From Escherichia coli (GTDB lineage Bacteria > Pseudomonadota > Gammaproteobacteria > Enterobacterales > Enterobacteriaceae): a stretch of DNA of 64,000 bases. Positions 3,563 to 42,500 of this stretch are shown here, one piece after another. Both the position numbers and the translations under genes were made by a program. Location: the NCBI RefSeq assembly GCF_050320075.1, contig NZ_CP190018.1. One strand, given 5' to 3'. The notes beneath the pieces are model-generated. The model was not told the DNA's origin, searched no databases, and worked only from the letters and a program-made list of their open reading frames with translations. Each line of letters opens with the position of its first letter. Position 1 is the first letter of the stretch.

Positions 3563-3590
3563 AAATCACCCCTTAGGGGGTGATTTTTTT
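3563..3590 (+). terminator. Rho-independent terminator after the two-gene membrane operon
   Basis: aatcacccc-TTAG-ggggtgatt stem-loop followed by T7 run immediately after the stop codon. Confidence 0.6.
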
Positions 3591-3801: not shown

Positions 3802-4749
3802 ATGAAGATATTTATTAGTTGGTCAGGTCAGGACAGCCTGGAGATAGCAAAAGTATTACGGGATTGGATACCGAATGTTATTCAAGTAGCTGAGCCGTAC
3901 GTATCAGCGGAAGATATTGATAAAGGCACTCGCTGGGCGACTGATATATCAAAGGAACTTGATGACTCTTCTTATGGGATTATTTGCCTTACAAAAAATA
4001 ATATTAATGCACCGTGGATAAATTTTGAGGCGGGTGCTTTAGGTAAAAAGGTTGATAAGAGCCGGGTTAGTCCTTTCTTGTTTAAAATTAAACCATCTGA
4101 GATAACAGGCCCAATATTACAATTCCAGTATACTCGTTCGGATGATAAGAACGATATTTTGAAGTTGATGTTGTCAATAAATAATCAAGCAGGATTTTTG
4201 ACTGAAGAACGCTTAACTAAAGCTTTCGAGCAATGGTGGCCAAGTTTAGAGCGTGAGTTAGATAACATTCAAGATATTAACCCTGTAGATAAAGATTCCA
4301 CTAAAAAAACAAAAGGTGATTCGACTTCTGAGATACAAAATCTTTCCAAAATTGTTGAAAGTTTGCTGGATATTAGCCGAACAAATCACCAATTATTGCG
4401 TGATCCAGCATCATTATTGCCAGAAGAATATGTTAGCAAAATAATAAACAGGGAAGGGCGTAAAGAAACTGTTTTAAAAATTGTAGCTTCTGATTTATTA
4501 TCCATGCATCATTCACTAATTCGTGTAAAAAGAAGATTTATTCGCCGTGGTATTGATGAAACATCTAGGAGCGAGTTAATTGAATCATTAAATAAAATGA
4601 TAATGGATTGTTCTAGAGTAATCGCTCACTTAGATAATTATTGTGGGGCTTCATCAAACAATATGTTCAATAGTGCGCTTAGATTGCGGACCAGAAATTT
4701 AATTGACATGATGGATGAGGAGGATGCAGAACGGGATGAAATGGAATAA
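3802..4749 (+). CDS. TIR-like domain protein, 315 aa: N-terminal TIR-like fold (~130 aa) plus helical C-terminal domain of unknown function (cargo, candidate defence protein)
   Basis: N-terminus MKIFISWSGQDS...GIICLT...APWINFEAGAL matches the bacterial TIR/TIR-like signature (FISYS-type strand 1, conserved W..E.G motif) by eye; no HMM search run. Confidence 0.65.
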   Translation: MKIFISWSGQDSLEIAKVLRDWIPNVIQVAEPYVSAEDIDKGTRWATDISKELDDSSYGIICLTKNNINAPWINFEAGALGKKVDKSRVSPFLFKIKPSEITGPILQFQYTRSDDKNDILKLMLSINNQAGFLTEERLTKAFEQWWPSLERELDNIQDINPVDKDSTKKTKGDSTSEIQNLSKIVESLLDISRTNHQLLRDPASLLPEEYVSKIINREGRKETVLKIVASDLLSMHHSLIRVKRRFIRRGIDETSRSELIESLNKMIMDCSRVIAHLDNYCGASSNNMFNSALRLRTRNLIDMMDEEDAERDEME

Positions 4750-5502: not shown

Positions 5503-6420
5503 ATGGATTATACGAGCTATATAATAGGACAGCTTCAGGTTGAGGATATTATTGATGCAATTAAAGGCGTTAATAATACTAATGTCATAAAAGATTATGT
5601 GCTGCCTGTAGTATTACCAATTATATCTTCTGTGCTGAGTTACTTTATTGCAACTAGGTTGTTTTATCGGCAGGAGTACCTTAAAGCACAAAGAAGAAAG
5701 GTAAGCGTTGTAAATAAATGTATTTATGACTACTTTTCTGCAATGACAACGTTGTTGCAAATTAAAGGGAATTATTATGGTGGGGTAAGTATAAGTGAAA
5801 ATCCTATCGAGAGGGCTTTAGCTTTTCCTGTTGTGGTTTTTTCTGGTGCTCCTCTATCATCAGATTTAAGTGAGTTGGCCTGTATATTGAGTCAAAAGGG
5901 AGTAGGGAATAATAGAGAGCCAGCAAAGACTACTAACTGGGGGGATGCTTTTGCTGTTAGTGATATAGCAAGAAGGTTTAACAGCCTATTGGCTGCATTA
6001 AATGTTAGGAATGATTTTGATGACACCTATAGAGGAATGATTATTGAATCAACAGGTTCACCTTTGCCTACGATGCGTTTTAAAAATGATGATATTGTTA
6101 ATGCTATAGGTAGTAATAAGGCAGCTTATTACATTGATATTACTGAGCAAATAATGATTATGATAGATGTTTTGTTGCTTGATATTAATCTGTTGCTCAA
6201 AGAGTTGCCATTGTATGCTGAATCGCTGTTTGACAAAAGAGTAATGCAAGAAGATTCAGGGATTCTTAAATTCAATGATTTGCACGAACGTTTTCCTCTA
6301 CTTATGAAACCTGTAACGCCACCTTCGATTAAACTCATGTCTGATTATTTGGGGTACAGTGAAGATGAGATCTTACGACGCTATCCATACCCGTTCTTTA
6401 ATATGCATGATTGTGAATGA
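5503..6420 (+). CDS. Hypothetical protein, 305 aa, single N-proximal TM helix, no domain recognised (cargo)
   Basis: ORF track; translationally coupled to the upstream lipoprotein ORF; hydrophobic segment VLPVVLPIISSVLSYFIATRLFY; strongly AT-rich. Confidence 0.65.
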   Translation: MDYTSYIIGQLQVEDIIDAIKGVNNTNVIKDYVLPVVLPIISSVLSYFIATRLFYRQEYLKAQRRKVSVVNKCIYDYFSAMTTLLQIKGNYYGGVSISENPIERALAFPVVVFSGAPLSSDLSELACILSQKGVGNNREPAKTTNWGDAFAVSDIARRFNSLLAALNVRNDFDDTYRGMIIESTGSPLPTMRFKNDDIVNAIGSNKAAYYIDITEQIMIMIDVLLLDINLLLKELPLYAESLFDKRVMQEDSGILKFNDLHERFPLLMKPVTPPSIKLMSDYLGYSEDEILRRYPYPFFNMHDCE

Positions 6421-6713: not shown

Positions 6714-7748
6714 TCAGCCGTTGTCAGTGTCCAGTGAGTAGTTTTTAAAGCGGATGACCTCCTGACCGAGCCAGCCGTTTATTTCCCGAATCCTGTCCTG
6801 TAACGGGATAAGCTCATTGCGGACAAAGACCTTTGCCACTTTCTCAATATCGCCCAGTGACCCGACGTTCTCCGGCTTGCCGCCCATCAACTGAAAGGGG
6901 ATGCGGTGCGCGTCCAGCAGGTCAGCGGCGCTGGCTTTTTTGATATTAAAAAAATCGTCCTTCGTTGCCACTTCACTGAGCGGGATAATTTTAATGCCGT
7001 CGGCTTTCCCCTGTGGGGCATAGAGAAACAGATTTTTAAAGTTATTGCGGCCTTTCGACTTCACCATGTTTTCGCGAAGCATTTCGATATCGTTGCGATC
7101 CTGCACGGCATCGGTGACGTACATGATGTATCCGGCATGCGCGCCGTTTTCGTAATACTTGCGGCGGAACAGCGTGGCCGACTCATTCAGCCAGGCAGAG
7201 TTAAGGGCGCTGAGATATTCCGGCAGGCCGTACAGCTCCTGATTAATATCCGGCTCCAGCAGGTGAAACACGGAGCCGGGCGCGAAAGGTGTCGGCTCGT
7301 TGAAGGACGGCACCCACCAGTAAACATCCTCCTCAACACCACGGCGGGTATATTTTGCCGGTGAGGTTTCCAGTCTGATGACCTTACCGGTGGTGCTGTA
7401 GCGCTTTTCCAGAAACGCATTACCGAACACCAGAAAATCCAGCACAAAGCGGCTGAAATCCTGCTGGGAAAGCCACGGGTGCGGAATAAACGTTGAAGCC
7501 AGAATATTACGTTTGACGTAAATCGGTGAGCTGTGATGTACGGCAGCACGCAGGCTTTTTGCCAGACCGGTAAAGCTGACCGGTGGCTCATACCATCTGC
7601 CGTTACTGATGCACTCGACGTAATCCAGAATGTCACGGCGGTCGAGTACCGGCACCGGCTCACCAAAGGTGAATGCCTCCATTTTCGGGGCGCTGGCGGT
7701 CATTGTTTTTGCCGCAGGTTGCGGTGTTTTCCCTTTTTTCTTGCTCAT
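6714..7748 (-). CDS. Q: Portal protein (P2 gpQ-like)
   Basis: 344 aa, same length and position as P2 Q; start overlaps stop of terminase gene by 1 nt. Confidence 0.9.
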   Translation of the reverse strand: MSKKKGKTPQPAAKTMTASAPKMEAFTFGEPVPVLDRRDILDYVECISNGRWYEPPVSFTGLAKSLRAAVHHSSPIYVKRNILASTFIPHPWLSQQDFSRFVLDFLVFGNAFLEKRYSTTGKVIRLETSPAKYTRRGVEEDVYWWVPSFNEPTPFAPGSVFHLLEPDINQELYGLPEYLSALNSAWLNESATLFRRKYYENGAHAGYIMYVTDAVQDRNDIEMLRENMVKSKGRNNFKNLFLYAPQGKADGIKIIPLSEVATKDDFFNIKKASAADLLDAHRIPFQLMGGKPENVGSLGDIEKVAKVFVRNELIPLQDRIREINGWLGQEVIRFKNYSLDTDNG

Positions 7749-19263: not shown

Positions 19264-21417
19264 ATGAGCACAAAATTCAAAACCGTTATCACCACTGCCG
19301 GTGCAGCAAAGCTGGCAGCGGCAACCGCACCGGGAGGGCGGAAGGTCAATATTACCACGATGGCCGTCGGGGATGGCGGTGGTAAATTGCCTGTCCCGGA
19401 TGCCGGACAGACCGGGCTTATCCACGAAGTCTGGCGACATGCGCTGAACAAAATCAGCCAGGACAAACGAAACAGTAATTATATTATCGCAGAGCTGGTT
19501 ATTCCGCCGGAGGTGGGCGGCTTCTGGATGCGTGAGCTTGGCCTGTACGATGATGCGGGAACGTTAATTGCCGTGGCGAACATGGCCGAAAGTTATAAAC
19601 CTGCCCTTGCCGAAGGCTCAGGGCGTTCGCAGACCTGCCGCATGGTCATCATCGTCAGCAGTGTGGCCTCAGTGGAGCTGACCATTGACACCACAACGGT
19701 GATGGCGACGCAGGATTACGTTGATGACAAAATTGCAGAGCATGAACAGTCACGACGTCACCCGGACGCCTCGCTGACCGCAAAAGGTTTTACTCAGTTA
19801 AGCAATGCGACCAACAGCACGTCTGAAACACTGGCCGCAACGCCGAAAGCGGTTAAGGCCGCATATGACCTTGCTAACGGGAAATATACCGCACAGGACG
19901 CTACCACAGCGCGAAAAGGTCTTGTCCAGCTAAGTAGTGCGACCAACAGCATGTCTGAAACGCTCGCCGCAACACCAAAAGCCGTTAAGACGGTAATGGA
20001 TGAAACGAACAAGAAAGCGCCATTAAACAGCCCTGCACTGACCGGAACGCCAACGACGCCAACTGCGCGACAGGGAACGAATAATACTCAGATCGCAAAC
20101 ACGGCTTTCGTTATGGCCGCGATTGCCGCCCTTGTAGACTCGTCGCCTGACGCACTGAATACGCTGAACGAGCTGGCGGCGGCGCTGGGCAATGACCCGA
20201 ATTTTGCTACCACCATGACTAATGCGCTTGCGGGTAAGCAACCGAAAGATGCCACTTTGACGGCGCTGGCGGGGCTTGCTACTGCGGCAGACAGGTTTCC
20301 GTATTTTACGGGGAATGATGTTGCCAGCCTGGCGACCCTGACAAAAGTCGGGCGGGATATTCTGGCTAAATCGACCGTTGCCGCCGTTATCGAATATCTC
20401 GGTTTACAGGAAACGGTAAACCGAGCCGGGAACGCCGTGCAAAAAAATGGCGATACCTTGTCCGGTGGACTTACTTTTGAAAACGACTCAATCCTTGCCT
20501 GGATTCGAAATACTGACTGGGCGAAGATTGGATTTAAAAATGATGCCGATGGTGACACTGATTCATACATGTGGTTTGAAACAGGCGACAACGGCAATGA
20601 ATATTTCAAATGGAGAAGCAAACAAGGCACCACAACAAAAGACCTGATGAATCTTAAATGGGATGCTTTGTATGTTCTTGTCAATGCCATTGTAAATGGC
20701 GAAGTCATATCAAAATCAGCAAACGGCCTACGTATTGCTTATGGTAATTACGGATTCTTTATTCGTAATGATGGTTCAAATACATACTTCATGTTGACAA
20801 ACTCCGGTGACAACATGGGGACTTATAACGGATTAAGGCCATTATGGATTAATAACGCTACTGGCGCTGTTTCGATGGGGCGTGGCCTTAATGTTTCAGG
20901 AGAAACACTTTCAGACCGTTTTGCTATTAACAGCGGTAATGGTATGTGGATTCAGATGCGCGATAACAACGCTATCTTTGGGAAAAATATAGTTAACACT
21001 GATAGCGCCCAGGCCTTGCTCCGTCAGGACCATGCCGACCGCAAATTTATGATTGGCGGTCTGGGAAATAAGCAATTTGGCATCTACATGATTAATAACT
21101 CAAGGACAGCCAATGGCACCGATGGTCAGGCGTACATGGACAATAACGGTAACTGGCTTTGTGGTTCGCAAGTTATTCCCGGCAACTATGGCAATTTTGA
21201 TTCCAGATATGTGAAAGATGTTCGACTTGGTTCACAGCAATATTATGGAGTGAACAACTGGCAAACATGGAATTTCCAGTGCCCGTCAGGTCATGTATTG
21301 TCTGGTATTAATGTTCAGGATACAGGGTCCAACTCTGCCGATAATATAGCGGGCGTTTATTACAGACCCGTTCAAAAGTATATAAATGGCACCTGGTATA
21401 ATGTAGCGAGCGTTTAA
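19264..21417 (+). CDS. H: Tail fibre protein (P2 gpH-like), 717 aa with AT-rich C-terminal receptor-binding region
   Basis: Position after I; N-terminus conserved phage-fibre type; composition shifts in the distal half. Confidence 0.85.
19786..20001 (+). repeat. Two imperfect ~84-bp direct repeats inside gene H, encoding a duplicated G(F/L)(T/V)[19 protein letters not shown] motif
   Basis: Repeat copies at about 19786-19869 and 19918-20001 read directly in DNA and protein. Confidence 0.6.
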
Positions 21418-21418
21418 T

Positions 21419-21946
21419 ATGATGCACTTAAAGAACATAAAAGCGGGTAACGCTAAAACACTGGAACAGTATGAGTTAACAAAGAAACACGGAGTTATCT
21501 GGCTTTACTCTGAGGACGGAAAAAACTGGTATGAGGAAGTGAAGAACTTTCAGCCAGACACAATAAAGATTGTTTACGATGAAAATAATATTATTGTCGC
21601 TATCACCAGAGATGCTTCAACGCTTAATCCTGAAGGTTTTAGCGTTGTTGAGGTTCCTGATATTACCTCCAACCGACGTGCTGACGACTCAGGTAAATGG
21701 ATGTTTAAGGATGGTGCTGTGATTAAACGAATTTATACGGCAGAGGAATTGCAGCAGCAGGCAGAAAATCGGAAAGGCAGACTTCTTGCAGATGCTGAAT
21801 CCGTGATTTTGCCGCTGGAGCGCGCTGTCAGGCTGAATATGGCAACAGATGAGGAACGCAGCCGACTGGAAGCATGGGAACGCTACAACGTTCTGGTCAG
21901 TCGTGTGGATACTGCAAATCCTGAATGGCCAGAAATGCCGCAATAA
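21419..21946 (+). CDS. G: Tail fibre assembly protein (P2 gpG-like)
   Basis: 175 aa, immediately downstream of H. Confidence 0.8.
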
Positions 21947-22240
21947 GTTGTATGAGTTCTGGTGGGAGTTTACATATCTATGGCACAGAGTAAAGCCTAA
22001 TCTGACAGTCCGCTCTGTGCCAGGAGCGGACATCCCACACTTCTGCTTCTGTGGCCAAAATCCGTATGCCACTACACTGCTGGCTTTTTAAGCGGCATTA
22101 ATCATATGGCTTCCTGTGAAAACGAAGGGTAAAATGGATAGGTATACGCTATAGAATTATGTATATGCTACATATACTAACAACGAAAGCAGGTTGCAAA
22201 GCAGCCTGTATAATCATCACTTAAGTTCATGGAATAAAAT

Positions 22241-22891
22241 ATGCATACTGGCTTTAAGGGAACTTATGACGCACTTTTGAGGCTTGAGAAGGCTATAGAA
22301 GGTCTGACCATCCAAGATGGGTTGATGACGAATACTCTTGGAGTTGGTGTTCCGGCAATAACATCAGATGACCTAATTGACCAAATAATTTGCATTATTA
22401 ACAAGCTGAAAGCATATGGTGATATTGAACTAACTGAAAAAGAAATTGCCGCTTATTCATCTCTCCCTGAAAAAATTGACACACTCATTAGAGTTCACGT
22501 CCCAGAGTTCTCAGGCGTTAACTCCGCACGAGCTATATCTTCATATATGCTAACACTGGCATATGTTGACCATTTCTTGGATGAATCGTTTACATGGAAG
22601 CGGTTGGATAATGCTAATTTACTTCCTAGAAATTTAAGCAGAAAAATTAAAAGCATGGAGGCGAGAATTAACAAGATTGATCCTGAGATGGATGCTCTTG
22701 AGAGTAAAGTTAAAACGATTAATGATGCTCATGTAGCTGCAGAAAATATACCTATAGACTTAAATGAATTAAAGGAATACAACAAAGAAGCATCTGATTT
22801 AAAGGAGAAGATATCTAAAACTCATTTCAGTTTAGAGTCCCAAGAAGAAGCCGCAAAAAAAATTATTGATGAGTTGCAAGAAAAAATATAG
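22241..22891 (+). CDS. Cargo protein at the Z/fun position, N-terminal part: 216 aa, soluble, coiled-coil-rich C-terminal half; probably the 5' portion of a longer frameshifted gene
   Basis: ORF track; TATAAT-like -10 element about 27 nt upstream; ends in TAG at 22889-22891 directly after an A6 tract. Confidence 0.6.
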   Translation: MHTGFKGTYDALLRLEKAIEGLTIQDGLMTNTLGVGVPAITSDDLIDQIICIINKLKAYGDIELTEKEIAAYSSLPEKIDTLIRVHVPEFSGVNSARAISSYMLTLAYVDHFLDESFTWKRLDNANLLPRNLSRKIKSMEARINKIDPEMDALESKVKTINDAHVAAENIPIDLNELKEYNKEASDLKEKISKTHFSLESQEEAAKKIIDELQEKI

Positions 22892-23016
22892 AGGCTGCCC
22901 GGTATCTGGCTCTTTGCGAAGAGGCTATTAGGGCTTCAACATCGAAAGGCTTAGCAGGAGCATTTGAAATAAAAGCAGATAAGCTTAACCGAAGTATCCA
23001 ACTATGGGTTGCCGGT

Positions 23017-23541
23017 TTGGCAGTTGCTTTGGGGCTTGGTGGTTTAGTCGGATATGAAAGATTGAAAGTTCTTTCTGGGGTTTTGAATAACCCAAATCCC
23101 AGTGCGGTAGTAATACTCACTCAATTACTATTATCTGTTTTTAGCATAGGCGCCCCTCTTTGGTTTGCTTGGATGTCTACAAAACAAATTAATCAACGTT
23201 TCAAACTCGCAGAGGATTATGCTTATAAAGCTTCTGTGGCTAAAGCGTATGAGGGATACAAAAATGAGGCATGCAAGGTATCAGATGGAGAGTTCGAAAA
23301 ACGCTTATTTGATTCTGCGCTAAGTCGACTTGAAGAGGCTCCATTGCGTTTTGTGAAAGATGAAGATCATACTACTCCTTGGACAGAAATGCTTAATTCT
23401 AAGTCGTTTCAAAAATTCTTAGATGCCTCCATTGATAATGTAAATTATGTTAAAGGGATTATAAGTAAGAAAGGCCAATCAGCAGCTAAAGCAAGCAATG
23501 ATGAGGTTAATCACATTGAAAAACTAAAGAATGAAGCTTGA
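23017..23541 (+). CDS. Cargo protein, C-terminal part: two TM helices plus about 130-aa C-terminal domain; reading frame is open back to 22873 with no in-frame ATG or RBS, consistent with fusion to the upstream ORF through a -1 shift
   Basis: Track start is a TTG; hand translation of 22873-23016 is stop-free and continues the coiled-coil (EAARYLALCEEAIRASTSKG...). Confidence 0.5.
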   Translation: MAVALGLGGLVGYERLKVLSGVLNNPNPSAVVILTQLLLSVFSIGAPLWFAWMSTKQINQRFKLAEDYAYKASVAKAYEGYKNEACKVSDGEFEKRLFDSALSRLEEAPLRFVKDEDHTTPWTEMLNSKSFQKFLDASIDNVNYVKGIISKKGQSAAKASNDEVNHIEKLKNEA

Positions 23542-23553
23542 ATTATAATACTG

Positions 23554-23576
23554 CCTCCGCAAGTGCGAGGCTTTTA
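23554..23576 (+). terminator. Rho-independent terminator after the Z/fun-position cargo gene
   Basis: gcctc-cgcaagtgc-gaggc stem-loop followed by TTTT. Confidence 0.6.
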
Positions 23577-23582
23577 CATTAA

Positions 23583-23611
23583 CTGCCCTGCAGTAAATCT
23601 AGGGCAGTTTT
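23583..23611 (+). terminator. Second tandem terminator
   Basis: ctgccct-...-agggcag stem-loop followed by TTTT. Confidence 0.55.
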
Positions 23612-23910
23612 ACGTGCTAGGGGCTGAGTTGGCTAACCGGCTCTTTCAGCAGTCGGTCTGCCGCTATTGAGCTGGGGCTCAACGTGTGTGAGAACGTCAG
23701 ATTCAATACGTAGGTATGGCCTCACTCCTTATTTGAGCACTCGCAATACAGAGCGTTAAAGTGATCGCCTTTCGGTACTGATCTGCGAATGACTTTGGGG
23801 GATTTGCACTCAGGGGAGAGTAACTTCGTGACAACTTCCGCTCTTAGCTAAAAGCAGACTGTCATATTTGATAGCGTTTCGGCTATGTAAATAGTCAGTC
23901 GGAAAATGAG

Positions 23911-23928
23911 TGTGTACAAATCAGGACA
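23911..23928 (+). promoter_or_regulatory. P2 late-promoter activator site (TGT-N12-ACA dyad) upstream of FI
   Basis: tgt-gtacaaatcagg-aca read in sequence about 120 nt upstream of the FI start; P2/P4 late promoters bound by Ogr/Delta carry this dyad. Confidence 0.45.
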
Positions 23929-24051
23929 GGCGGGCTGATTTCCCGCCTTTTCTTTATCTGTTGTTTCATCCCCTGACCAGCCAGGTCAAATAGCGTCTCA
24001 TGTACTACCCAACGGAAAATAGTTGCACCCATTAACCACGGAGTTAAACGG

Positions 24052-25242
24052 ATGAGTGACTATCATCACGGCGTGCAGGTGCTGGAGATTAACGACGGCA
24101 CCCGCGTCATTTCCACCGTATCCACGGCCATTGTCGGCATGGTCTGCACGGCCAGCGATGCGGATGCGGAAACCTTCCCCCTCAATAAACCGGTGCTGAT
24201 TACCAATGTGCAGAGCGCAATTGCAAAGGCCGGTAAAAAAGGCACGCTGGCGGCATCGTTGCAGGCCATCGCCGACCAGTCAAAACCGGTCACCGTTGTC
24301 GTGCGCGTGGAAGACGGCACCGGTGATGACGAGGAAACGAAACTCGCGCAGACCGTTTCCAATATCATCGGCACCACCGACGAAAACGGTCAGTATACCG
24401 GACTAAAAGCCCTGCTGGCGGCGGAGTCGGTAACCGGTGTTAAACCGCGTATTCTCGGTGTGCCGGGGCTGGACACCAAAGAGGTGGCTGTTGCACTGGC
24501 ATCCGTCTGTCAGAAGCTGCGCGCTTTCGGATATATCAGCGCATGGGGCTGTAAGACCATTTCCGAGGTGAAAGCCTACCGCCAGAATTTCAGCCAGCGT
24601 GAGCTGATGGTCATCTGGCCGGATTTCCTCGCATGGGATACGGTCGCCAGTACCACCGCCACCGCGTATGCCACCGCCCGTGCGCTGGGCCTGCGCGCTA
24701 AAATCGACCAGGAGCAGGGCTGGCATAAAACGCTGTCCAACGTCGGGGTAAACGGTGTTACCGGCATCAGTGCCTCTGTATTCTGGGATTTGCAGGAGTC
24801 CGGCACCGATGCTGACCTGTTGAACGAGTCAGGTGTCACAACGCTGATTCGCCGTGACGGTTTCCGATTCTGGGGTAACCGTACCTGCTCTGATGACCCG
24901 CTGTTCCTCTTTGAAAACTACACCCGCACCGCGCAGGTGCTGGCCGACACGATGGCTGAGGCGCACATGTGGGCGGTGGACAAGCCCATCACCGCAACGC
25001 TGATTCGCGACATCGTTGACGGCATCAATGCCAAATTCCGTGAGCTGAAAACAAACGGCTATATCGTGGATGCGACCTGCTGGTTCAGCGAAGAATCCAA
25101 CGATGCGGAAACCCTCAAGGCCGGAAAACTGTATATCGACTACGACTATACACCGGTGCCTCCTCTTGAAAACCTGACCCTGCGCCAGCGTATTACCGAT
25201 AAATACCTGGCAAATCTGGTCACCTCGGTTAACAGCAATTAA
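24052..25242 (+). CDS. FI: Tail sheath protein (P2 gpFI-like)
   Basis: 396 aa, size and position. Confidence 0.9.
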   Translation: MSDYHHGVQVLEINDGTRVISTVSTAIVGMVCTASDADAETFPLNKPVLITNVQSAIAKAGKKGTLAASLQAIADQSKPVTVVVRVEDGTGDDEETKLAQTVSNIIGTTDENGQYTGLKALLAAESVTGVKPRILGVPGLDTKEVAVALASVCQKLRAFGYISAWGCKTISEVKAYRQNFSQRELMVIWPDFLAWDTVASTTATAYATARALGLRAKIDQEQGWHKTLSNVGVNGVTGISASVFWDLQESGTDADLLNESGVTTLIRRDGFRFWGNRTCSDDPLFLFENYTRTAQVLADTMAEAHMWAVDKPITATLIRDIVDGINAKFRELKTNGYIVDATCWFSEESNDAETLKAGKLYIDYDYTPVPPLENLTLRQRITDKYLANLVTSVNSN

Positions 25243-30926: not shown

Positions 30927-32288
30927 TCACTTACCGTGTGGGTTACGCGTGGTTTCCCCGGAGAAATTACGCATCAGCAGAGCGTAATTGAGCTCAAGAT
31001 CCTGCGGGACCGGGAGCCACACAGTATAACCATCGCCTGGTGCGACCGGCATCGCTTCACCTATGGCGTTTTCCATGTGCTCAAGGGTAAAGTTAATGTT
31101 GCCTTGCGGCGTCATCAGCTCAAGGCTGTCGCCAACGGAGAATTTATTTTTCACCGCTACCGCCGCGAGGTCCCCCTTGCGCTCACCGGTAAACTCACCA
31201 ACAAACTGCTGGCGGTCAGAAACTGAATAACCGTATTCGTAGTTCTGATAATCGTCGTGAGTATGACGACGCAGGAAACCTTCGGTATAGCCACGATGCG
31301 CCAGACCTTCCAGAGTTTCCAGCAGGCTGGTATCGAACGGTTTGCCCGCAGCGGCGTCATCGATAGCTTTACGGTAAACCTGTGCGGTGCGTGCGCAATA
31401 GTAGAAAGATTTAGTACGGCCTTCGATTTTCAGCGAATGCACGCCCATTTTGGTCAGGCGTTCTACATGGGCGATGGCGCGCAGATCTTTCGAGTTCATG
31501 ATGTAAGTGCCGTGCTCATCTTCAAACGCGGTCATATACTCGCCCGGACGCTGGGCTTCTTCGATCATAAACACTTTGTCGGTTGGCGCGCCGATACCCA
31601 GCGTCGGCTCAACATTTTGCACCGGAATCGGCTCGTACTTGTGTACGATGTTGCCAACGTCATCTTCTTTCCCTTCCTGGACGTTGTACTCCCAGCGGCA
31701 GGCGTTGGTGCAGGTACCCTGGTTCGGATCGCGCTTGTTGATATAGCCAGAGAGCAGGCAGCGACCGGAGTAGGCCATGCACAGTGCGCCGTGAACGAAG
31801 ATCTCGATCTCCATATCCGGCACCTGATTGCGGATCTCTTCAATCTCTTCCAGCGACAGCTCGCGAGAGAGGATCACGCGGGTCAGGCCCATTTGCTGCC
31901 AGAATTTCACCGTCGCCCAGTTTACGGCGTTAGCCTGCACCGAGAGGTGGATCGGCATTTCAGGGAAGTGCTCACGCACCAGCATAATCAGCCCTGGATC
32001 GGACATAATCAGCGCATCCGGCCCCATTTCCACCACCGGTTTCAGGTCACGGATAAAGGTTTTCAGCTTGGCGTTGTGCGGTGCAATGTTGACCACGACA
32101 TAAAACTTTTTCCCCAGCGCGTGGGCTTCATTGATGCCGAGCTGAAGATTTTCGTGGTTGAATTCGTTGTTGCGCACACGCAGGGAGTAACGCGGCTGGC
32201 CCGCATAAACAGCATCTGCGCCATAAGCGAAAGCGTAACGCATATTTTTCAGCGTTCCCGCCGGGGAAAGGAGTTCCGGTTTAAACAT
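30927..32288 (-). CDS. yegQ: Peptidase U32-family protein YegQ
   Basis: 453 aa, K-12 synteny downstream of baeR-yegP. Confidence 0.9.
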   Translation of the reverse strand: MFKPELLSPAGTLKNMRYAFAYGADAVYAGQPRYSLRVRNNEFNHENLQLGINEAHALGKKFYVVVNIAPHNAKLKTFIRDLKPVVEMGPDALIMSDPGLIMLVREHFPEMPIHLSVQANAVNWATVKFWQQMGLTRVILSRELSLEEIEEIRNQVPDMEIEIFVHGALCMAYSGRCLLSGYINKRDPNQGTCTNACRWEYNVQEGKEDDVGNIVHKYEPIPVQNVEPTLGIGAPTDKVFMIEEAQRPGEYMTAFEDEHGTYIMNSKDLRAIAHVERLTKMGVHSLKIEGRTKSFYYCARTAQVYRKAIDDAAAGKPFDTSLLETLEGLAHRGYTEGFLRRHTHDDYQNYEYGYSVSDRQQFVGEFTGERKGDLAAVAVKNKFSVGDSLELMTPQGNINFTLEHMENAIGEAMPVAPGDGYTVWLPVPQDLELNYALLMRNFSGETTRNPHGK

Positions 32289-32434
32289 AATTCTCTCGTT
32301 CTGATGACAGGTCAGATCCGCTTCACCTGATGAAGCGGTTAGGGGAGTGCCCCCACTTTAAGGGCGGGCATTGTAGCGCTGTGGGGGGATCTGGTAAAGC
32401 GCCGGACGCCAACAACCCACGCCCGGCATCGTAA

Positions 32435-32767
32435 TTACGTATTGTCTTTCACCGTCTGGCTTGTGCCATTGGCTTTAACGGAGGCAATTCCGGTTTCACG
32501 AGATTGCGCGGTGGCGTACATCTGGCTGGAGCCGATAATTTGATGATTAGCGGCTTTCAGATTGAAATAGAATTTGCCGTTACTTGCCGTTTTTTTCTCA
32601 TAGCGTTCTTCTTGCGGGCTGTTGCTACGCACCGACGCGATGCCCTTTTCCGCAGAGGCTTTTGAGGTATAAAGCTCGCTGGTGAGGATAGTCTCACCAT
32701 TGCCCGCTTTTAGCACAAACCGGAACTGATTATCACTGCTCTTACTGAGTTCAAACCAACCAGCCAT
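32435..32767 (-). CDS. yegP: DUF1508/UPF0339 family protein YegP
   Basis: 110 aa from MAGWFELSK...; internal duplicated motif; synteny. Confidence 0.85.
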   Translation of the reverse strand: MAGWFELSKSSDNQFRFVLKAGNGETILTSELYTSKASAEKGIASVRSNSPQEERYEKKTASNGKFYFNLKAANHQIIGSSQMYATAQSRETGIASVKANGTSQTVKDNT

Positions 32768-32912
32768 AATGACTCCTTGATTGAAATTGTGTATCGAAAA
32801 CAGCATCTAAAGGTGCTGTTTACCGATTAAAGTATGAGCGATTTTCTGATGCCTGCCAGGGCGGAGAGATAATGTCAGTTTGCTGACCATGCGTGGGATA
32901 ATGTTGCTAAAA

Positions 32913-33635
32913 CTAAACGATGCGGCAGGCGTCGGCTTCCCAGCGGTAACCGACGCCATAAACGGCGCGGATAAATGACTGTTCGGCGTCGAGAGATTCC
33001 AGCTTGCGGCGCAGGTTTTTAATGTGGCTGTCGATGGTGCGGTCGGTTACTACGCGGTAGTCGTCATAAAGATGATTGAGCAATTGCTCGCGGGAGAACA
33101 CTTTTCCTGGTTCGTGAGAGAGCGTTTTCAGCAGACGAAATTCCGCAGGCGTCAGGTCAAGCATTTTACCGCGCCATGAAGCCTGAAAACGACCTTCGTC
33201 GATAATCAACGGGCTTTCAGCATCCTGTTGCTGCAACTCGCGCTGCGGTTTGCAACGGCGCAAAATGGTTTTGACGCGCGCTACCACTTCCCGTGGGCTG
33301 TACGGCTTACAGATATAATCATCTGCGCCAATCTCCAGCCCCAGCAGGCGATCGATCTCTTCGATTTTTGCCGTCACCATCACGATCGGAATGTCAGAAA
33401 AACGACGAATTTCCCGGCACAGCGTCAGGCCATCGGTGCCAGGGAGCATCAGATCTAACAGGATCAGATCCGGTGGTGTCTGGCGCACATACGGCAGTAC
33501 CTGATCGCCGTGGCTGATAAGCGTCGGCGCATAGCTCGCAGCACGCAGATAATCAATGAGCAACTGCCCCAGCTTCGGTTCATCTTCCACGATCAAAATA
33601 CGCGGTGTGTTTTCGTCGATTGGTAACTCGGTCAT
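32913..33635 (-). CDS. baeR: Response regulator BaeR (OmpR family)
   Basis: 240 aa, receiver plus winged-helix domains; downstream of baeS. Confidence 0.9.
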
Positions 33636-35035
33636 ACTTCTCTCTGTAAATCCCGTTCCAGCGGTAACTCTACTGTAATGCTTACCCCGCCAAAAGGCGA
33701 ATGGGCAGCAATAATGCGACCATTATGTGCTTCAACAATGTTCAGGCAAATCGCCAGCCCCAGCCCGGAACCGCCGCTGGCACGGTTGCGGGAACCTTCG
33801 GTGCGATAAAAACGTTCAAACAATTTTTGTAGCTGATCGTCACTGACACCTGGCGCACTGTCGGCAAAGGTCAGGCGCACCGTTTTGTCGCGCTGCCCGG
33901 CAGAGATTTGCAGGCTGCCGCCGCTGTCAGTGTAGCGCAGGCTGTTTTCCAGTAAGTTATTGAATAACTGCATTAAACGGTCGCGATCGCCAAATACGGT
34001 AATACTGTCTGGCAGGGAAAATTGCAGTTTCAGGCCACGACTGGCGAATCGTTCGCGAAATGCGCCGCCCGCCACTTCCAGCAGTGGGATCAAATCTACC
34101 GGTGCTTTTTGATAGGCGAGAGCGCCTTCATCAGACATCGACAACTGATGGAGATCGTCAACCAGTTTGGTCAGTGTACCGACCTCCGCCTGTAAAGACG
34201 CCACCGTCTCCGGCGTGAATTTACGCACGCCATCCTGAATGGCTTCCAGTTCACCGCGCAGCACCGCTAATGGCGTACGCAGTTCGTGAGAAATATCGGC
34301 CATAAAATCGCGCCGCATTTGCTGGTTTTTCTCCAGTGTGCTGGCAAGCTGGTTGAAGTCTTGCGCCAGTTTGCCCAGTTCATCTTCACTGGTGGGCGTT
34401 ACGCGGGTAGTGAAATCGCCCGCCGCCAGTTTGTGCGTGCCATCGACAAGTCGTTTTACCGGTGCCAGTAAACCGCGCGCCAGCAGAAAAGTGGCAAGTG
34501 CCGCGAGTAACGTTGCCAGGGCGACAATCAACCAGCTGGTTTGCCGCTGTTGTTTATCGAAATTGATATCAGTATTGCGCGTTAACCGCTCAACGGGGGA
34601 GGCGATCACCGCGCCAACTTCCGCACCGTTGACCAGAATGGGTCGCCGTGTACCGTCAGGTGGAATCGGCGCTCGCGGACCAACCAGCACTTTGTTGTTT
34701 TGATCAACCACCCAGAACTGGGTACGCCAGCCGTGCGGTGGCATACCCGGGCCGGGTTTATCTTCCGAATTATCGTGTTCAAATGAACGCAGGATCTGAA
34801 AGACAAAGCGATCATTGTTGCGCAGGAAGCGCCAGTTGCCATGCTGCGCATACTGCTCGCCAAGCGCATCACTTAACAGTTGTAATCGCTGTTCATTACC
34901 ATGCTTGATGTAATCAATAAAGCCACGCTCAAAACTGATACGCACCGCCCAGTGCATACTGATCAGCAAGACAATGCAGGTGGCGAAAATCGCCAGAAAC
35001 AGTTTGCCGGTAATACCGGGTCGCCAGAACTTCAT
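33632..35035 (-). CDS. baeS: Sensor histidine kinase BaeS
   Basis: 467 aa, HAMP/HisKA/HATPase motifs, synteny. Confidence 0.9.
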
Positions 35036-36447
35036 TGCGCGCTCCTTTTTCGCCGCGAAATAGCTACATTTTGATGCGTATCGTTCGGCACTCTGGCAAA
35101 GATGAACGCCGGAAGGGCGATGATCAACGCCATGCTAAGCCAGGTGTACATAAAGACGGTTTGTGTGGTGCCGCTGTCGACGCTGACATGCTGTGAACCA
35201 AAAAGTCCCAGCAACAGCCCGGCGATAGTGACGCCGATACTCATCGACAATTGCATAATCATCGACAGCAGGCTGTTGCCGCTGCTCGCCAGATTGTCCG
35301 GGAGATCTTTCAGCGTCAGGGTGTTCATGGAGGAGAAACGCGTCGAGTTGACCATCCCTTGTAAAAACAGGACGAACGGCAAAACGTAGTACCAGCCCAG
35401 CAGGGCGGTAGTCATAAACAACAGGGTGACCAGCGACAGACCCAGCGTGGTCGCTACCAGTACCCGACGATAACCAAAGCGATTCACCACCTGTACCACA
35501 ATTCGCTTCATTCCCATGCTGCCAAGCACCATCGGGATCATCATCAGTCCGGCATGAAACGGCGAGAAACCGAGGCCAATTTGCAGGAAAACCGGTGTCA
35601 TAAAGGGCAACATGCCACTGCCAATACGTCCGGCAAAGCTCCCCGCCAGGCCCAGCGAAAAGGTACGAGTACGGAACAGTTTCAGACTGAACAGGGCACG
35701 GTTGTTATTTCTGGCGTGCAGCAGATAAAGCACCAGTGCCACCACGCCAACTGCGACCAGGCCTGCAATCGTCAGCGGCGATAAACCTGTACCTTTACTG
35801 CCGTCCAGCGCCAGGGTTAATACCGCCATGCCAACCGCCAGCAATAAAAATCCGGAGAGATCAAAGCGCCGCGTCTGCATGGTGTAGTTTGGCATTAACA
35901 GCAATGTGGCGATCGCACCGATAATCCCCACCGGAATGTTGATCAAAAAGATCCAGTGCCACGATGCGTACTCCACCAGCAGACCGCCGAGCGCCGGACC
36001 GAGCAGCGGACCGACCTGACCGGGTAACGTGACAAAGGTCATCGCCGCCATATATTGCTCGCGCGGTACGATTTTCATCACCGTCAATCTGCCGACCGGC
36101 ACCATCATCGCGCCGCCAACGCCCTGTAACGCGCGTGCCAGCAACAGTTCGTTCAGCGTGCCGGAAAGCGCGCAAAACAGTGAACCGAGAGTAAACAGCA
36201 CGATGGCGGTAAAGAAAATATTGCGCACGCCGACTTTGTCCGCCAGCCAGCCGCTGGCGGGCAGCATCACCGCCACGGTCAGCACATAAGAGACAATGAC
36301 CATGTGCATATGCAACGGACTTTCCCCGAGGCTTTGCGCCATTGAGGGAAGGGCGGTGTTTACGATGGTGGTGTCCAGCGACTGCATAAAGAAGCCGAAA
36401 GCCACAATCCACAATTGCCAACGGGTGCTGTCGGGAAGATCTGTCAT
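35032..36447 (-). CDS. mdtD: MFS transporter MdtD
   Basis: 471 aa polytopic membrane protein, synteny. Confidence 0.9.
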
Positions 36448-39400
36448 TTACTCGGTTACCGTTTGTTTAGGTTTACGCGAAAAACGCAGCCGCAGACGGT
36501 CGAAAAAGAGATACACCACCGGCGTGGTATACAGCGTAAGGAGCTGGCTCATTACCAGTCCGCCGACAATGGTGATCCCCAGGGGTTGCCGCAGCTCCGA
36601 GCCGTCGCCGCCCGACAACACCAGCGGCAGCGCGCCAAACAGCGCCGCCAGGGTAGTCATCATAATCGGGCGAAAACGCAGCAGACAGGCCTGGAAAATA
36701 GCTTCCTGCGGCGTCAGGTTACCGTGCCGTTGGGCTTCAAGCGCAAAATCGACCATCATAATGGCGTTTTTCTTCACGATGCCGATTAATAGCATGATCC
36801 CTATCAGGGCGATTAGGCTGAACGGGGCATTGAACAGCTCCAGCGCCAGCAGCGCTCCAACACCCGCCGAGGGCAGGGTGGAGAGAATCGTCAGCGGGTG
36901 CACATAACTCTCGTAAAGGATACCCAGCACGATATACACCGTGGCGATGGCGGCGATAATCAGGATCACCTGTGAGTTCATCGTCTCCTGGAACACCTGC
37001 GCTGTTCCGGCAAAACTGCCGCGCACCGTCGAAGGCACACCAAGCTGGGTCATTGCGCGATCGATCGCCGCACTGGCGTCCGAGAGCGATTTTCCGGTCG
37101 GCAGGTTGAACGAAATGGTCGAGGCCGCCGATAATCCCTGATGATTCACCGATAGTGGGGCATTCGCCGGTTGCCATTTAGCGAAATACGACAGCGGGAT
37201 CGCTTTGCCTTCGTTATTGATAACGAACATTTTTTCCAGCGCACTGATGTCCTGGGTATAGCGCGGATCCACTTCCATCACCACTTTATACTGGTTCATC
37301 GGCTGGTAAATGGTCGAGATTTGCCGCTGACCGAAGGCGTTATTTAACAGACTGTTGGCGGCTTGTACGTCGATTCCCAGCCGTGCCATGGTGTCGCGAT
37401 CGTAAACCAGATTCATCTCCGCGCCGTTATCCTGCTGATCGGAGTTCACGTCCGCCAGTTCCGGCAATGTCGCCAGTTTTTTGCGGATTTTCGGCTCCCA
37501 TTCGCGCAGTGCCGCCAGGTCGTCGGATAACAACGTGTACTGATAACTGGCGTTAGACTGACGTCCGCCAACGCGAATATCCTGTACCGCCATCAGGAAC
37601 AGATTCGCCCCCGGTTCTTTCGCCAGCTTCACCCGCAGACGGTCGATAATTTGCTGCGCCGTTTCGCTGCGTTCGTCGCGTGGCTTGAGGGTGATAAACA
37701 TCATCCCGCTGTTCACTCGCGAACCGCCTGTAAAGCCGGTGACATTATCCACTGCCGGATCGTCACGGATAATTTTCATGAAATCCTGCAACTTACCGCG
37801 CATCGCCTGAAACGAAATACTCTGATCCGCCTGAATCCCGCCCATCAACACGCCAGTGTCCTGCTCCGGGAAGAAGGTTTTCGGGATCGAGATATACAGC
37901 CAGATATTCAGCGCAATGGTGCCAAGCAGCACCACGCCCACCAGACGGGTATGATTGAGCACCCATTTCAGTGACTTGCCGTAGCCTTGTTGCAGGGCTA
38001 CCAACATGCGACCAAAACCACGTAGTCGCTTTTGCTCGCGCGGCTTGCTGGCTTTCAGCATCCAGCCACACATCATTGGCGTTAATGTCAGAGAAACCAG
38101 TAACGAAATACCAATGGCGACAGAAAGCGTCACGGCAAACTCGCGTAACAGTCGGCCCGGCAATCCGCCCATCAACAGCAGCGGCAGGAACACCGCCACC
38201 AGTGACAGACTCATCGACAGCACCGTAAAGCCGACTTCGCGAGTACCTTGTAGCGCGGCCTGTAGTGGTTTCATCCCCGCTTCCAGATGACGGGCAATGT
38301 TTTCCAGCACCACGATGGCGTCATCCACCACGAAACCAGTAGCGATGGTGAGCGCCATTAACGACAGGTTATTGAGACTGAATCCGCACAGGTACATCGC
38401 CGCAAACGTACCAATCAGCGAAACCGGCACCACAACGGCGGGAATAATAGTGGCGCGACCCGAGCGCAGGAATAAAAACACCACCAGAATCACCAGCGCC
38501 ACCGAGATAATCAGCGTTTGCTCGACTTCTTCCAGCGAGGCGCGAATGGTGGGGGAGCGATCCTGGGCAATTTGCAGATCAATCGCCGCCGGAATGGTCT
38601 CCTGCAACTCCGGTAATTTTGCCCGGATGCTGTCAACCGTCTGGATAATATTGGCTTCCGGCAGCTTGCGGATCATCAGCAAAATAGCTGGTTTGGCGTT
38701 GGTCATCCCGGCGTTGCGCACATCCTGCACCGAGTCAGTCACCGTCGCCACATCACCCAGACGAACCGCGCCGCCGTTGTTGTAATGAATAATCAACGGC
38801 TGATATTCAGCGGCGGTTTTTAGCTCATCATTGGTCTGGATCTGCCAGCGGTGAGTGCCATCTTCCAGTGCCCCCTGTGGTTTACGCACGTTGGCATTGC
38901 TGATGGCGGTGCGTACGTCGTCCAGCGAGACGCCCTGATTAAACAGCGCCTGCGGATTCAGCCCGACGCGTACGGCGGGCAGTGAGCTGCCGCCGACATC
39001 GACATCACCAACACCGTCGATTTGCGAAATCGTCGGAGCCAGCTGCGTCGAGGCGAAATCGTACAGTTCACCCTGAGAATAAGTATCGGATGTCAGCGTG
39101 AGGATCATAATTGGCGCATCCGACGGGTTCGCTTTGCGATAGGTCGGACGGCTGGGCATCCCACTGGGCAGCAAACTTTGTGCAGCGTTGATCGCCGCCT
39201 GCACATCACGCGCTGCGCCGTTGATATCCCGGTCAAAATCAAACTGCAAAATAATCCGCGTGCTGCCGAGCGAACTACTGGAGGTCATTTCACTAACCCC
39301 GGCAATGCGCCCAAGTGAGCGCTCCAGCGGCGTGGCAACGGAAGACGCCATTGTCTCCGGCGACGCACCGGGCAGCGAGGCGCTGACCATAATCACCGGA

Positions 39401-39525
39401 AAATCGACCTGCGGCAGCGGGGCGACCGGCAGCATACGGAAGCCCAGTATGCCGCAGAGGGTAATGGCGACCGACAGTAAAATCGTCGCCACCGGGCGGT
39501 AAATGAAGAGGGCAAAAAACTTCAC
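36448..39525 (-). CDS. mdtC: RND multidrug efflux permease MdtC
   Basis: 1025 aa RND transporter, synteny. Confidence 0.9.
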
Positions 39526-42500
39526 TTACGCCTCCTCTTCATGGCGAGCAAAGCGACTTTTGGTCCACAATGCCAGGCGGTCGAACAGCAGATAAATCAC
39601 CGGCGTGGTGAACAGCGTCAGCACCTGGCTGACAATCAGACCGCCGACCATGCCGATACCTAACGGACGACGCAGTTCCGCGCCGACCCCGGTACTCAAC
39701 ATCAGCGGCAGCGCGCCAAGCAGAGCCGCCAGGGTGGTCATCAGGATCGGACGAAAACGCAACAGACAAGCCTGGTAGATGGCATCGCGCGGCGACATGC
39801 CTTGCTCGCGCTCAGCAGCCAGCGCGAAGTCGATCATCATGATGGCGTTCTTCTTCACGATACCGATCAGCAAAATAATGCCGATAATCGCAATCACATC
39901 CAGCTCACTTCCGGCAATCATTAATGCCAGCAGTGCGCCGACCCCTGCGGTGGGTAGCGTCGAGAGAATGGTGATCGGGTGAATAAAGCTCTCGTACAGA
40001 ATGCCGAGCACGATATACATCGCCACCACCGCCGCGACAATCAGCCAGACAGTGCTGCCCAGCGCCGACTGGAAGGCGAGGGTGCTGCCCTGGAATTGCG
40101 TGGTGATATCCACCGGCAGATTCAGCGTCTTCTCGGTGTCCATAATCGCCTGCACCGCATCACCCAGCGAATAGTTATCCGGCACGTTAAAGGAGATGGT
40201 CGTTACCGGGAACTGATCCAGATGGTTGATGGAGAGCGGCGCAAAACGCTGCTCAATTTTGGCAATTGAGCTTAGCGGCACCACGCCACCGTCGCTGCTG
40301 GTCAGGCGAATGGTATCCAGCGCCGCGAGGCCTGGGGTATTTTCGGTGTTGTGTTCCAGCACCACGCGATACTGGTTAGCCTGAGTATAAATAGTGGAAA
40401 TCAGCCGCTGACCAAACGCGTTGTACAGGGCGTTATCGACATCCGCCATGCTGATCCCCAGACGGCTGGCGCTGTCGCGATCAACATTGACATACGCCAC
40501 CAGCCCTTTGTCCTGCCAGTCGCTGGAGACATCAGAAAGCTGTGGCAGTTGCTGGAGTTTTTCCATCAACTCTGGCACCCAGGTACTGAGCGCATCCAGT
40601 GAGGTGGCCTGCAAGGTAAACTGGTACTGGGTGCGGCTGACCTGAGTATCGATGGTCAGGTCCTGCGTTGGTTGCAGGAAGAGATCGACGCCCGGCACTT
40701 TATCCACCGCCGTTTGCAGACGGGCGATGACTTTTTGCACCCGATCATCACGTTCATCCAGCGGTTTGAGGTTGATCTGCAAACGCGCACTGTTCAGCGA
40801 CGGGTTAGTGCCATCAACGCCAACAAATGAGGTCAGACTTTGCACTGCCGGATCCTGCAAAATCACGTCCGCGACCTGGCGTTGCCGCTGGGCCATATTG
40901 GCAAAGGAGCTGGATTGCGGTGCCTGCAAAGTGCCCTGAATAATGCCGTTGTCCTGTACCGGGAAGAAACCTTTCGGAATGAACACCCACAGCAGCACGC
41001 TAAGCAGCAGCGTGCTGAGTGCCACGCTTAAGGTCAGCCACGGATGATTCAGCACTTTCGCCAGTCCACGACCATAGGCGGCGATTATCCTGTCGAACAT
41101 TTTTTCCGAGGCACGGGAGAAGCGGTTCTGTTTACGCAACGACTCCTGGCTGAGCATCCGCGCGCACATCATCGGTGTCAGGGTCAGCGACACCACCGCT
41201 GAGATCAAAATCGCTACCGCCAGGGTAATAGCAAATTCGCGGAACAGTCGCCCGACGATATCGCCCATAAACAGCAGTGGGATCAACACCGCAATCAGCG
41301 AGAAGGTCAGCGAGATAATGGTAAAGCCGATTTCACCTGCGCCCTTGAGCGCCGCCGCCAACGGTTTTTCGCCTTTTTCGATATAGCGGGAAATATTTTC
41401 GATCACCACGATGGCGTCATCGACCACGAACCCGGTGGCGATAGTTAACGCCATCAGCGTCAGGTTATTGATTGAAAAATCGAGAAACACCATGACCGCG
41501 AAGGTGCCGATTAACGACAGCGGCACTGCGAAGCCGGGAATGATGGTCGCCGGAATATTGCGCAAAAACAGGTAGATAATCATGACTACCAGCGCGATAG
41601 CCATCATCAATTCAAACTGGGTATCGTTGACCGATGCGCGGATATTGGTGGTGCGATCGGAAAGCACTGTTACCTTCACCGATTTCGGCAGACTCTCGGT
41701 GAGCTGTGGCAGCATCTGCCGGATGCTGTCGGCGATGGAGATAATGTTAGCACCGGGCTGGCGCTGAACATTCATCACAATGGCCTGTTCTTTGTTCGCC
41801 CATGCGCCAAGCCAGCTGTTTTCTGCACCTTGCTCTACGGTTGCGACATCGCCAAGACGAATCGGCGCGCCGTTCTGGTAGGCGATGATTAGCTGGCGAT
41901 ACTCTTCGGCGGATTGCATCTGGTCGTTCGCGGAAAGCGTGACCGCACGGGAAGGGCCGTCGAGGCTACCTTTTGCCGAGTTAACGTTAGCGCCGGTAAT
42001 GGCGGTGCGCACGGTTTCGCTGGTCAGGCCGAGGGCGGCAATCGCCTGAGCGTTAAGTTTGACGCGAACAGCCGGACGCTGACCGCCGGAAAGCGTCACC
42101 AGGCCGACGCCGGAAATCTGCGAGATTTTCTGCGCGACGCGGGTTTCCACCATATCTTCCACTTGCGTCATCGGCATGGCGGTTGAGGTGACGGCGAGCG
42201 TCATGATCGGCGGATCTGCCGGGTTCACTTTGCTGTAAACCGGCGGGTTAGGCAGATCGCTCGGTAGCAGGTTAGTGGCGGCGTTAATCGCGGCCTGCAC
42301 TTCCTGCTCGGCGACATCGAGCGGTAATGTTAGCTGGAACTGTAAGGTGATAACTGACGCACCGCCGGAACTTTGCGACGACATCTGTTTCAGGCCAGAC
42401 ATCTGCCCGAACTGGCGCTCGAGCGGCGCGGTAACGGCAGAGGTCATGACATCCGGGCTTGCACCTGGGTAAAGCGTGACTACCTGAATGGTCGGATAGT

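Follow-up and report, generated by a model that had tools for sequence, protein, structure and literature searches.

The subject of this analysis is an accessory ("moron") gene at positions 22241–23541, plus strand, of a 64,000-nucleotide stretch of the Escherichia coli contig NZ_CP190018.1 (hereafter the window), where it is carried as cargo by a prophage with a P2 backbone. The gene lies there in two halves and is, in this copy, a frameshift pseudogene. Its 5′ part (22241–22891, plus strand) is an ATG-started open reading frame (ORF) of 216 codons, listed as such among the ORFs of the window, whose product comprises residues 1–215 of the intact protein, with codons matching WP_089585673.1, followed by one wrong residue and a premature TAG. 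This part encodes a variable helical N-domain (residues 1–128) and a coiled coil (residues 129–215). The 3′ part (22885–23541, plus strand, −1 frame), the translation of which equals residues 216–433 of the intact allele, carries the conserved membrane module. Translation of the −1 frame from 22780 onward meets no stop between 22873 and 23539–23541, where the frame closes. The encoded chain contains NIEAARYLALCEEAIRASTSKGLAGAF, a pair of hydrophobic helices and, C-terminally, a polar part. The ORF list, the translation and the hydropathy are thus all in accord with an earlier note, written from the letters alone, that had described a 216-residue ORF with two transmembrane (TM) helices following in the −1 frame. 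Its further suggestion, that the two be read together as a protein of about 433 residues, matches the single annotated coding sequence of 433 residues found in 11 complete E. coli genomes. With upward of 1,000 homologues of equal length, the ORF is anything but a product of chance.

The two halves are separated by one base. A three-way DNA alignment shows that the window has G-A6 (the A6 run is 22881–22886, plus strand) where intact alleles have G-A7, and over 1.6 kb this indel is the sole difference between the window and E. coli 4114. Loss of the single A truncates the product of the window at 216 residues, just before the membrane module. In the downstream frame the only in-frame start past the stops is a TTG at 23017, which lies inside the first TM helix; therefore the membrane module of the window cannot be made separately, and this copy of the gene is most likely off. 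We hold the structural and genetic description of the gene as a whole with high confidence.

The gene occupies a swapped cargo cassette (about 22025–23832, plus strand) that replaces P2 Z/fun and has P2 backbone homology on both sides. Identity to P2 (NC_070904) ends at about 22024, some 78 nucleotides past the stop of the tail-fiber assembly gene G (21419–21946, plus strand; an identical gene of E. coli 4114 carries this annotation in RefSeq), and begins again near 23833, some 220 nucleotides before the tail sheath gene FI (24052–25242, plus strand). P2 itself carries a 299-residue Z/fun gene between these borders, on the same strand, so the breaks in backbone identity confirm the placement at the Z/fun slot that had been proposed. 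The DNA had also been called AT-rich, and indeed GC content is 0.35–0.44 in the cassette versus 0.55–0.60 in its flanks, and 0.35–0.41 in the gene versus 0.55–0.60 in the tail genes on either side.

Recurrent disruption of the gene

A megablast search of the 1.6-kb stretch against 5,426 complete E. coli genomes showed it to be present in 18. In 11 of these the gene is one base longer and forms a single 433-residue coding sequence (for example WP_089585673.1 of strain 4114), in six it has the same length as in the window and is annotated as two "hypothetical proteins," and in the remaining one it is interrupted by the insertion sequence IS1. Two of the six split alleles were checked, and both lie on another haplotype, five single-nucleotide polymorphisms away, which has its own A7 relative in strain RS571. 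Because an A6 allele thus stands beside an A7 relative on this second haplotype, the A7-to-A6 change must have arisen at least twice. A different frameshift is seen in the protein P0401, which ends in AAKKLLMSCKKKI followed by the stop, the reading expected after one A is lost from an A8 run at 22855–22862 (plus strand); this run is accordingly the site of the other E. coli frameshift allele (A8 to A7). The IS1 insertion (locus L065, E. coli 0-4) falls in the N-terminal half of the gene. The gene has therefore been broken independently no fewer than four times, by A7-to-A6 loss on each of two haplotypes, by shortening of A8 to A7 and by IS1. All frameshift alleles terminate at one TAG (22889–22891). 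The commonest truncated product, P0392, is found on 333 contigs, and the intact 433-residue variants among the matches listed sum to about 340 contigs.

Two readings of the frame break were considered and rejected. A sequencing artifact is ruled out by the occurrence of the exact truncated product on 333 contigs and by the annotation of the split gene in six complete genomes. A conserved programmed frameshift is rejected because the poly-A runs are not positionally conserved among the homologues. The repeated, independent loss of the reading frame suggests instead a gene that is costly or dispensable, and is compatible with a product that is costly or toxic.

Architecture and relatives of the intact protein

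When intact, the gene encodes a 433-residue inner-membrane protein consisting of an N-domain, a coiled coil, a TM hairpin, a juxtamembrane helix and, at the C-terminal end, a variable tail. In a Kyte-Doolittle scan of the fused sequence, hydrophobic 19-mers are confined to about residues 252–273 and 285–314. By hydropathy and invariant columns, the first TM helix (TM1), LWVAGLAVALGLGGLVGY, is encoded at 23002–23055 (plus strand; residues 255–272) and has conserved small-residue positions at G259, G267 and G271. The second (TM2), AVVILTQLLLSVFSIGAPLWFAWM, is encoded at 23104–23175 (plus strand; residues 289–312), and its C-terminal end is formed by an invariant P-x-W-x-x-W. The post-TM cytoplasmic helix follows directly (23176–23280, plus strand; residues 313–347) and bears the signature STKQI.QRF.LAEDYA.KASVAKAYEGY..EA. 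The protein lacks a signal peptide and has positive charges on both the N and the C side of the hairpin; by the positive-inside rule both large parts of the protein would therefore be cytoplasmic, with about 17 residues predicted to face the periplasm and about 370 to lie in the cytoplasm.

Conservation is distributed very unevenly along the chain. Mean pairwise identity, calculated by segment over 42 diverse aligned family members, is 30% in the N-domain (residues 1–128), 34% in the coiled coil (129–224), 60% in the pre-TM helix (225–254), 52% in TM1 (255–273), 39% in the periplasmic loop (274–290), 62% in TM2 (291–312) and 82% in the post-TM helix (313–347), the most conserved segment of the family, then 64% over residues 348–390 and 20% in the tail (391–433). 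Invariant residues include G259, G271, R274, P306, W308, W311, T314, K315, Q316, R320 and F321, continue in the post-TM helix with E325, D326, Y327, K330, K335, Y337, E338, G339, Y340 and E343, and reappear farther on at R363, E366, P368, L369 and R370. Judged by sequence, the increase between the N-domain (30%) and the post-TM helix (82%) would correspond to the usual pattern of a variable sensor joined to a conserved effector.

AlphaFold2 modeling of the whole protein gave moderate confidence, with a predicted local distance difference test score (pLDDT) of 70.8, an N-terminal helical bundle (residues 1–120) at pLDDT 80–90, and a long helix that continues into TM1. Modeled alone from 130 sequences, the C-terminal module (C-module) was predicted confidently (pLDDT 91.1, predicted template modeling score 0.74) as two helices (219–282 and 289–347), each some 60 residues long, that pair into a hairpin with the TM segments at its tip, after which come a predicted helix at 350–365 and three short helices.

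The protein belongs to a large family. The first search returned more than 1,000 homologues, nearly all of 415–445 residues, all annotated as "hypothetical" and none with a Pfam domain. When a profile of the C-module was run against 1.84 billion cluster representatives, 1,926 proteins matched at E ≤ 1e-3 and 485 at E ≤ 1e-30, which puts the family at about 1,900 clusters at 50% identity. The module lies nearly always at about residues 218–410 of a protein of about 430 residues, though a few versions of about 300 residues lack the N-domain. The same profile search was used to seek domain fusions and relatives with a Pfam annotation, and the matches listed, all of them fragments or members of this one family, carried no Pfam domain. 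Matches in AFDB50 come from Alpha-, Beta- and Gammaproteobacteria and from Bacteroidota, all uncharacterized. Two families of the PHROG database are related: PHROG 34659 matches from end to end (E = 0, 1016.8 bits, residues 1–433 against profile positions 1–433) and PHROG 30912 remotely (E about 1e-11), and both are annotated as of "unknown function."

That no known family is recognizable in this protein, as had been noted from the letters, was upheld by the profile and structure searches that the earlier note had proposed, none of which found homology to a characterized protein. At E ≤ 10, 17 domains came up in Pfam, with coiled-coil noise as the only signal (Tropomyosin, independent E value 4e-4) and neither SLATT nor DUF4231 among them. 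CorA appeared at an independent E value of 0.68 through the coiled-coil residues 121–232, and the loop, RLKVLSGVLNNPNPSAV, lacks the GMN motif, so membership in that family is not indicated. PADLOC-DB v2.0.0 gave only coil noise, DruC (E = 1.3e-3) and LmuB (E = 6.6e-3), both within residues 131–225, while NCBIfam gave only coil matches of the SMC/Rad50 type far under their cut-offs. The best match in a sequence search of the PDB had E = 0.014 and lay in the coiled coil. Foldseek searches with the full-length model returned only uncharacterized family members from AFDB50, and from the PDB no specific structural neighbor (best E = 0.5).

P2 Z/fun is a T5-exclusion gene. The present gene shares with it the slot between G and FI, the strand and the status of a single accessory gene expressed from the prophage. 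However, Z/fun is a protein of 299 residues without an alignable counterpart of the TM hairpin module common to the present family, and the direct comparison that had been called for finds no similarity between the two (best BLASTP E = 2.1; hhalign probability 0.12%). In contrast, a true homologue is found in Table S5B of Rousset et al. 2022 as system no. 102, an E. coli protein of 431 residues with 65% identity and the same architecture and length. That system (cluster P0007/P0378) is recorded there with 32 occurrences as a single gene that lacks a Pfam domain, annotated "2 TM," and it comes from the other P2 hotspot (old/tin, between gpA and portal), unlike the Z/fun-slot gene of the window. 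Its motif is absent from the tested systems in Table S2 of the same study; therefore it was apparently not assayed there. Literature searches by accession, PHROG identifier, peptide motif and descriptive terms found the family mentioned only in that supplementary table. The status of the family as hotspot cargo is thus already catalogued, in the Rousset 2022 supplementary table and in PHROGs, without a function.

Genomic contexts and candidate function

A scan of IMG/VR yielded 46 family loci. Three of these are the same Z/fun-slot cassette, including one with the split allele (L022), while some 20 are flanked by a gpA-type replication endonuclease gene on one side and the portal/terminase genes of P2-like phages on the other, as shown by neighbor clustering and by PHROG matches (phrog_91, phrog_68, terminase). 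A Kosakonia P2-like prophage has the same gpA–portal arrangement. This position is the old/tin hotspot, a validated reservoir of defense systems (Rousset et al. 2022). The Z/fun slot is the second P2 defense hotspot, where three new systems were found (Vassallo et al. 2022, PMC9519451), and it was rediscovered by Egorov et al. 2024 (bioRxiv 10.1101/2024.10.15.618418). The family therefore occupies both P2 hotspots and recurs in validated defense locations, as expected of an anti-phage class. At one P2-like IMG/VR prophage (L041:5691-7623) the homologue is preceded by two genes, the first for a 445-residue AAA ATPase that matches the HEC-02A, PD-T4-4_A, NsnB, AriA and PtuA models and the second for a 203-residue partner (phrog_25533) whose function is unannotated.

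Outside the P2 hotspots, homologues occur in a Stenotrophomonas integrative mobilizable element that encodes integrases as well as proteins with MobA and TraD domains, in an Enterobacter P2/P4-like remnant carrying an Ogr/Delta-family gene, in the temperate Providencia phage PSTCR8lys, and in insertion-sequence-rich DNA adjoining a type I restriction (EcoR124_C) fragment. A 436-residue paralogue with zero matches in PADLOC-DB v2.0.0 is carried by an E. coli island adjoining yeeJ and tRNA-Asn in 24 complete genomes. A megablast search with an old/tin-hotspot homologue (L019) against the complete E. coli genomes gave no match, and a context look-up for P0100 and P0158 returned no record. In all of the approximately 50 homologues examined GC content is below that of the flanks. 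Because no neighbors are conserved apart from phage backbone genes, the gene is a single-gene module, and the family as a whole constitutes large, uniform, mobile, uncharacterized, single-gene cargo.

Two further contexts are recorded here as side observations. In Luteimonas granuli (L066:9001-10281) a lone family member lies directly 3′ of recC-recB-recD, which may be coincidence or may mark a small insertion site. In Thiothrix (L012:9305-9871) the stop of the homologue overlaps the start of an AAA_33/zeta-toxin-like kinase gene immediately after it, and a 56-residue ORF comes next; the kinase gene has no PADLOC match.

The explanation that we consider best, and that we judge about evenly poised between right and wrong, is that the intact gene encodes a candidate self-contained sensor and membrane-effector protein acting against phages or in competition between viruses. 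The functional part of this proposal is drawn entirely from genomic association. In this scheme detection of a phage cue would fall to the variable N-domain together with the coiled coil. The conserved membrane part, namely the TM hairpin and the juxtamembrane helices, would respond by oligomerizing or opening, and the resulting loss of membrane potential would abort the infection. The parts of the proposal differ in strength. That the family has a defense role of some kind is slightly favored over the opposite. The specific membrane-permeabilizing mechanism is rather doubtful. More tentative still is the notion that the family represents a new single-protein anti-phage system, in which a TM hairpin with its invariant STKQ...AEDY...KAYEGY helix and a fast-evolving cytoplasmic sensor are united in one chain. 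Were it such a system, toxicity would explain why lysogens have repeatedly switched the gene off at the poly-A runs, possibly toggling it.

Membrane effectors of abortive infection include RexB, the 2TM protein of retron Ec48, the TM effectors of CBASS and Pycsar, the SLATT/HalA protein of Hailong, and 2TM-1TM-TIR. These effectors have short TM hairpins or bundles that are thought to depolarize the inner membrane, are borne on prophages or islands, and are toxic if mis-expressed. The earlier note had likened the present architecture to effectors of this kind. The resemblance holds for the TM hairpin, the only feature in common, but does not extend further, since Pfam SLATT, PADLOC and 2TM profile searches gave no match, including an hhalign comparison of the family profile with the 2TM protein of the 2TM-1TM-TIR system in the same prophage. 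In addition, the present protein differs from those effectors in having no partner gene for a sensor or enzyme and in carrying a 250-residue cytoplasmic N-terminal part of its own. The hairpin module may also be compared with α-helical pore-formers of the IpaB, XaxB/PaxB and ClyA class, in which a hydrophobic hairpin tips a long coiled coil.

Several findings weigh against a defense function for this gene. Similarity to any known defense protein or effector is lacking in PADLOC, Pfam, NCBIfam and the PDB, and the four kinds of literature search named above returned no published test of any family member. The pore or depolarization step is conjectured purely from the presence of a 2-TM hairpin. 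About half of the occurrences in the allele group are frameshifted, and a 2026 preprint reports that recognized P2 defense genes are rarely pseudogenized, whereas the present gene is so far more often. The old/tin hotspot also holds partition systems and a cytolethal distending toxin (Rousset 2022). Finally, several homologues are lone islets beside housekeeping genes (recBCD, nrdAB, purL).

Two alternatives, both improbable and to much the same degree, bear on these points. Action as a superinfection-exclusion protein, which would block genome entry or channel formation from the inner membrane without killing the cell, has been proposed for other small prophage membrane proteins. Such a role would suit an inner-membrane protein encoded by a prophage in the very slot whose P2 occupant, Z/fun, excludes T5, and another P2-hotspot cargo, SieB, likewise has 2 TM helices (Rousset 2022 Table S5B). 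However, exclusion is difficult to reconcile with a topology in which only about 17 residues are predicted to be periplasmic as against about 370 in the cytoplasm; hhalign detects no similarity to Z/fun or to SieB (probability 0.45% for the latter), and the family also resides in mobile elements other than phages and in chromosomal islets.

Alternatively, the gene could encode an accessory membrane protein unconnected with defense, such as an envelope or stress factor, a modulator of lysis timing or a host-fitness factor, that hitch-hikes in variable phage regions. The non-defense cargo of P2 hotspots, the homologues that stand alone beside recBCD, nrdAB and purL, and the frequent pseudogenization, which suggests dispensability, are all in keeping with such a role. 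It is nevertheless countered by the enrichment of the family in both validated defense hotspots, by the locus that adjoins known defense-type genes, and by a patchy distribution of copies that, without exception, have an atypically high AT content, stand as single genes and have moved horizontally. Moreover, the family spans Proteobacteria and Bacteroidota and is therefore not linked to the lysis or morphogenesis module of any one phage.

Very unlikely, and the weakest of the alternatives, is that the frame break is itself functional, the poly-A tract being a phase-variable ON/OFF switch or the full-length protein leaking through by slippage (either of RNA polymerase or of tRNA-Lys, the latter moving −1 on GAA-AAA where the rare AUA codon comes next), such that a small full-length amount would hold a toxic effector at a safe dose. 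From the codons, a −1 slip at GAA-AAA would restore the wild-type ...QEKNIEA exactly, the tract has been altered independently on two haplotypes and the adjoining A8 tract in a third, and the truncated allele is very common; but tracts of A6/A7 are short for phase variation, a programmed signal is without support since poly-A at this site is not conserved in homologues, the IS1-disrupted allele is a plain inactivation, and clonal spread of a single pseudogene accounts for the high frequency.

If the intact protein of the anti-phage proposal does protect, it would represent a widespread single-gene defense family, present as cargo in both P2 hotspots and small enough for easy dissection, with an effector module unrelated to those of known systems. 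The recurrent frameshift and IS1 disruptions provide a natural experiment on the cost of carriage. If it does not protect, the gene is one more uncharacterized prophage moron, of which the window holds a pseudogene; genes of unknown function are expected in P2 hotspots, and the copy at hand is broken.

Flanking features and other cargo of the prophage

A perfect TATAAT hexamer, read from the sequence at 22209–22214 (plus strand), lies 27 nucleotides 5′ of the ATG and is a possible −10 element of a promoter belonging to the gene itself, with no canonical −35; a consensus promoter scan did not call it. Just past the stop codon, RNA folding finds two hairpins, each followed by U4, at 23553–23571 and 23581–23609 (plus strand). 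Two strong terminators had been described after the gene. The hairpins are there, but their strength is not borne out, as 23553–23609 fails a consensus terminator scan and the folding energy of the region is ordinary (z = −0.96); they are plausibly weak intrinsic terminators of the cassette. The sole consensus terminator, at 23928–23948 and 5′ of FI, belongs to the conserved P2 backbone. An Rfam scan of 21800–24200 gave no match, and a repeat search of the same interval found nothing beyond one 15-nucleotide two-copy direct repeat, 14/15 identical, with copies at the left edge of the cassette (22045–22059) and inside the gene (23230–23244), which is probably due to chance.

Upstream of the cargo, GC content already falls to 0.38–0.46 in the 3′ third of the tail-fiber gene H and in gene G (about 20400–21950), and in related prophages G is 100% identical and H only about 90%. 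This suggests that the fiber tip and the chaperone are exchanged together as a module of their own. Egorov et al. 2024 (bioRxiv 10.1101/2024.10.15.618418) have remarked on such exchange next to the hotspot at this locus.

The old/tin hotspot of the same prophage, situated between gpA (1–2280) and portal (6714–7748, minus strand), contains a three-gene 2TM/1TM/TIR-TM defense system at 2610–4746 (plus strand), with PADLOC matches to 2TM-TIR (2.2e-58), 1TM-TIR (2.7e-75) and TIR-TM (2.3e-118). The 2TM-1TM-TIR system has been validated from the P2-like phage AC1 (Rousset 2022). Located 3′ of the TIR system in this hotspot is a 305-residue ORF (5503–6417, plus strand) that has no PADLOC or NCBIfam match. 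At the other end, within 30927–44042, the prophage terminates at ogr and is followed by yegQ and then by baeSR and mdtABCD (minus strand). The insertion site at yegQ agrees with that in E. coli 4114, where a RelE/ParE-ParD pair adjoins yegQ.

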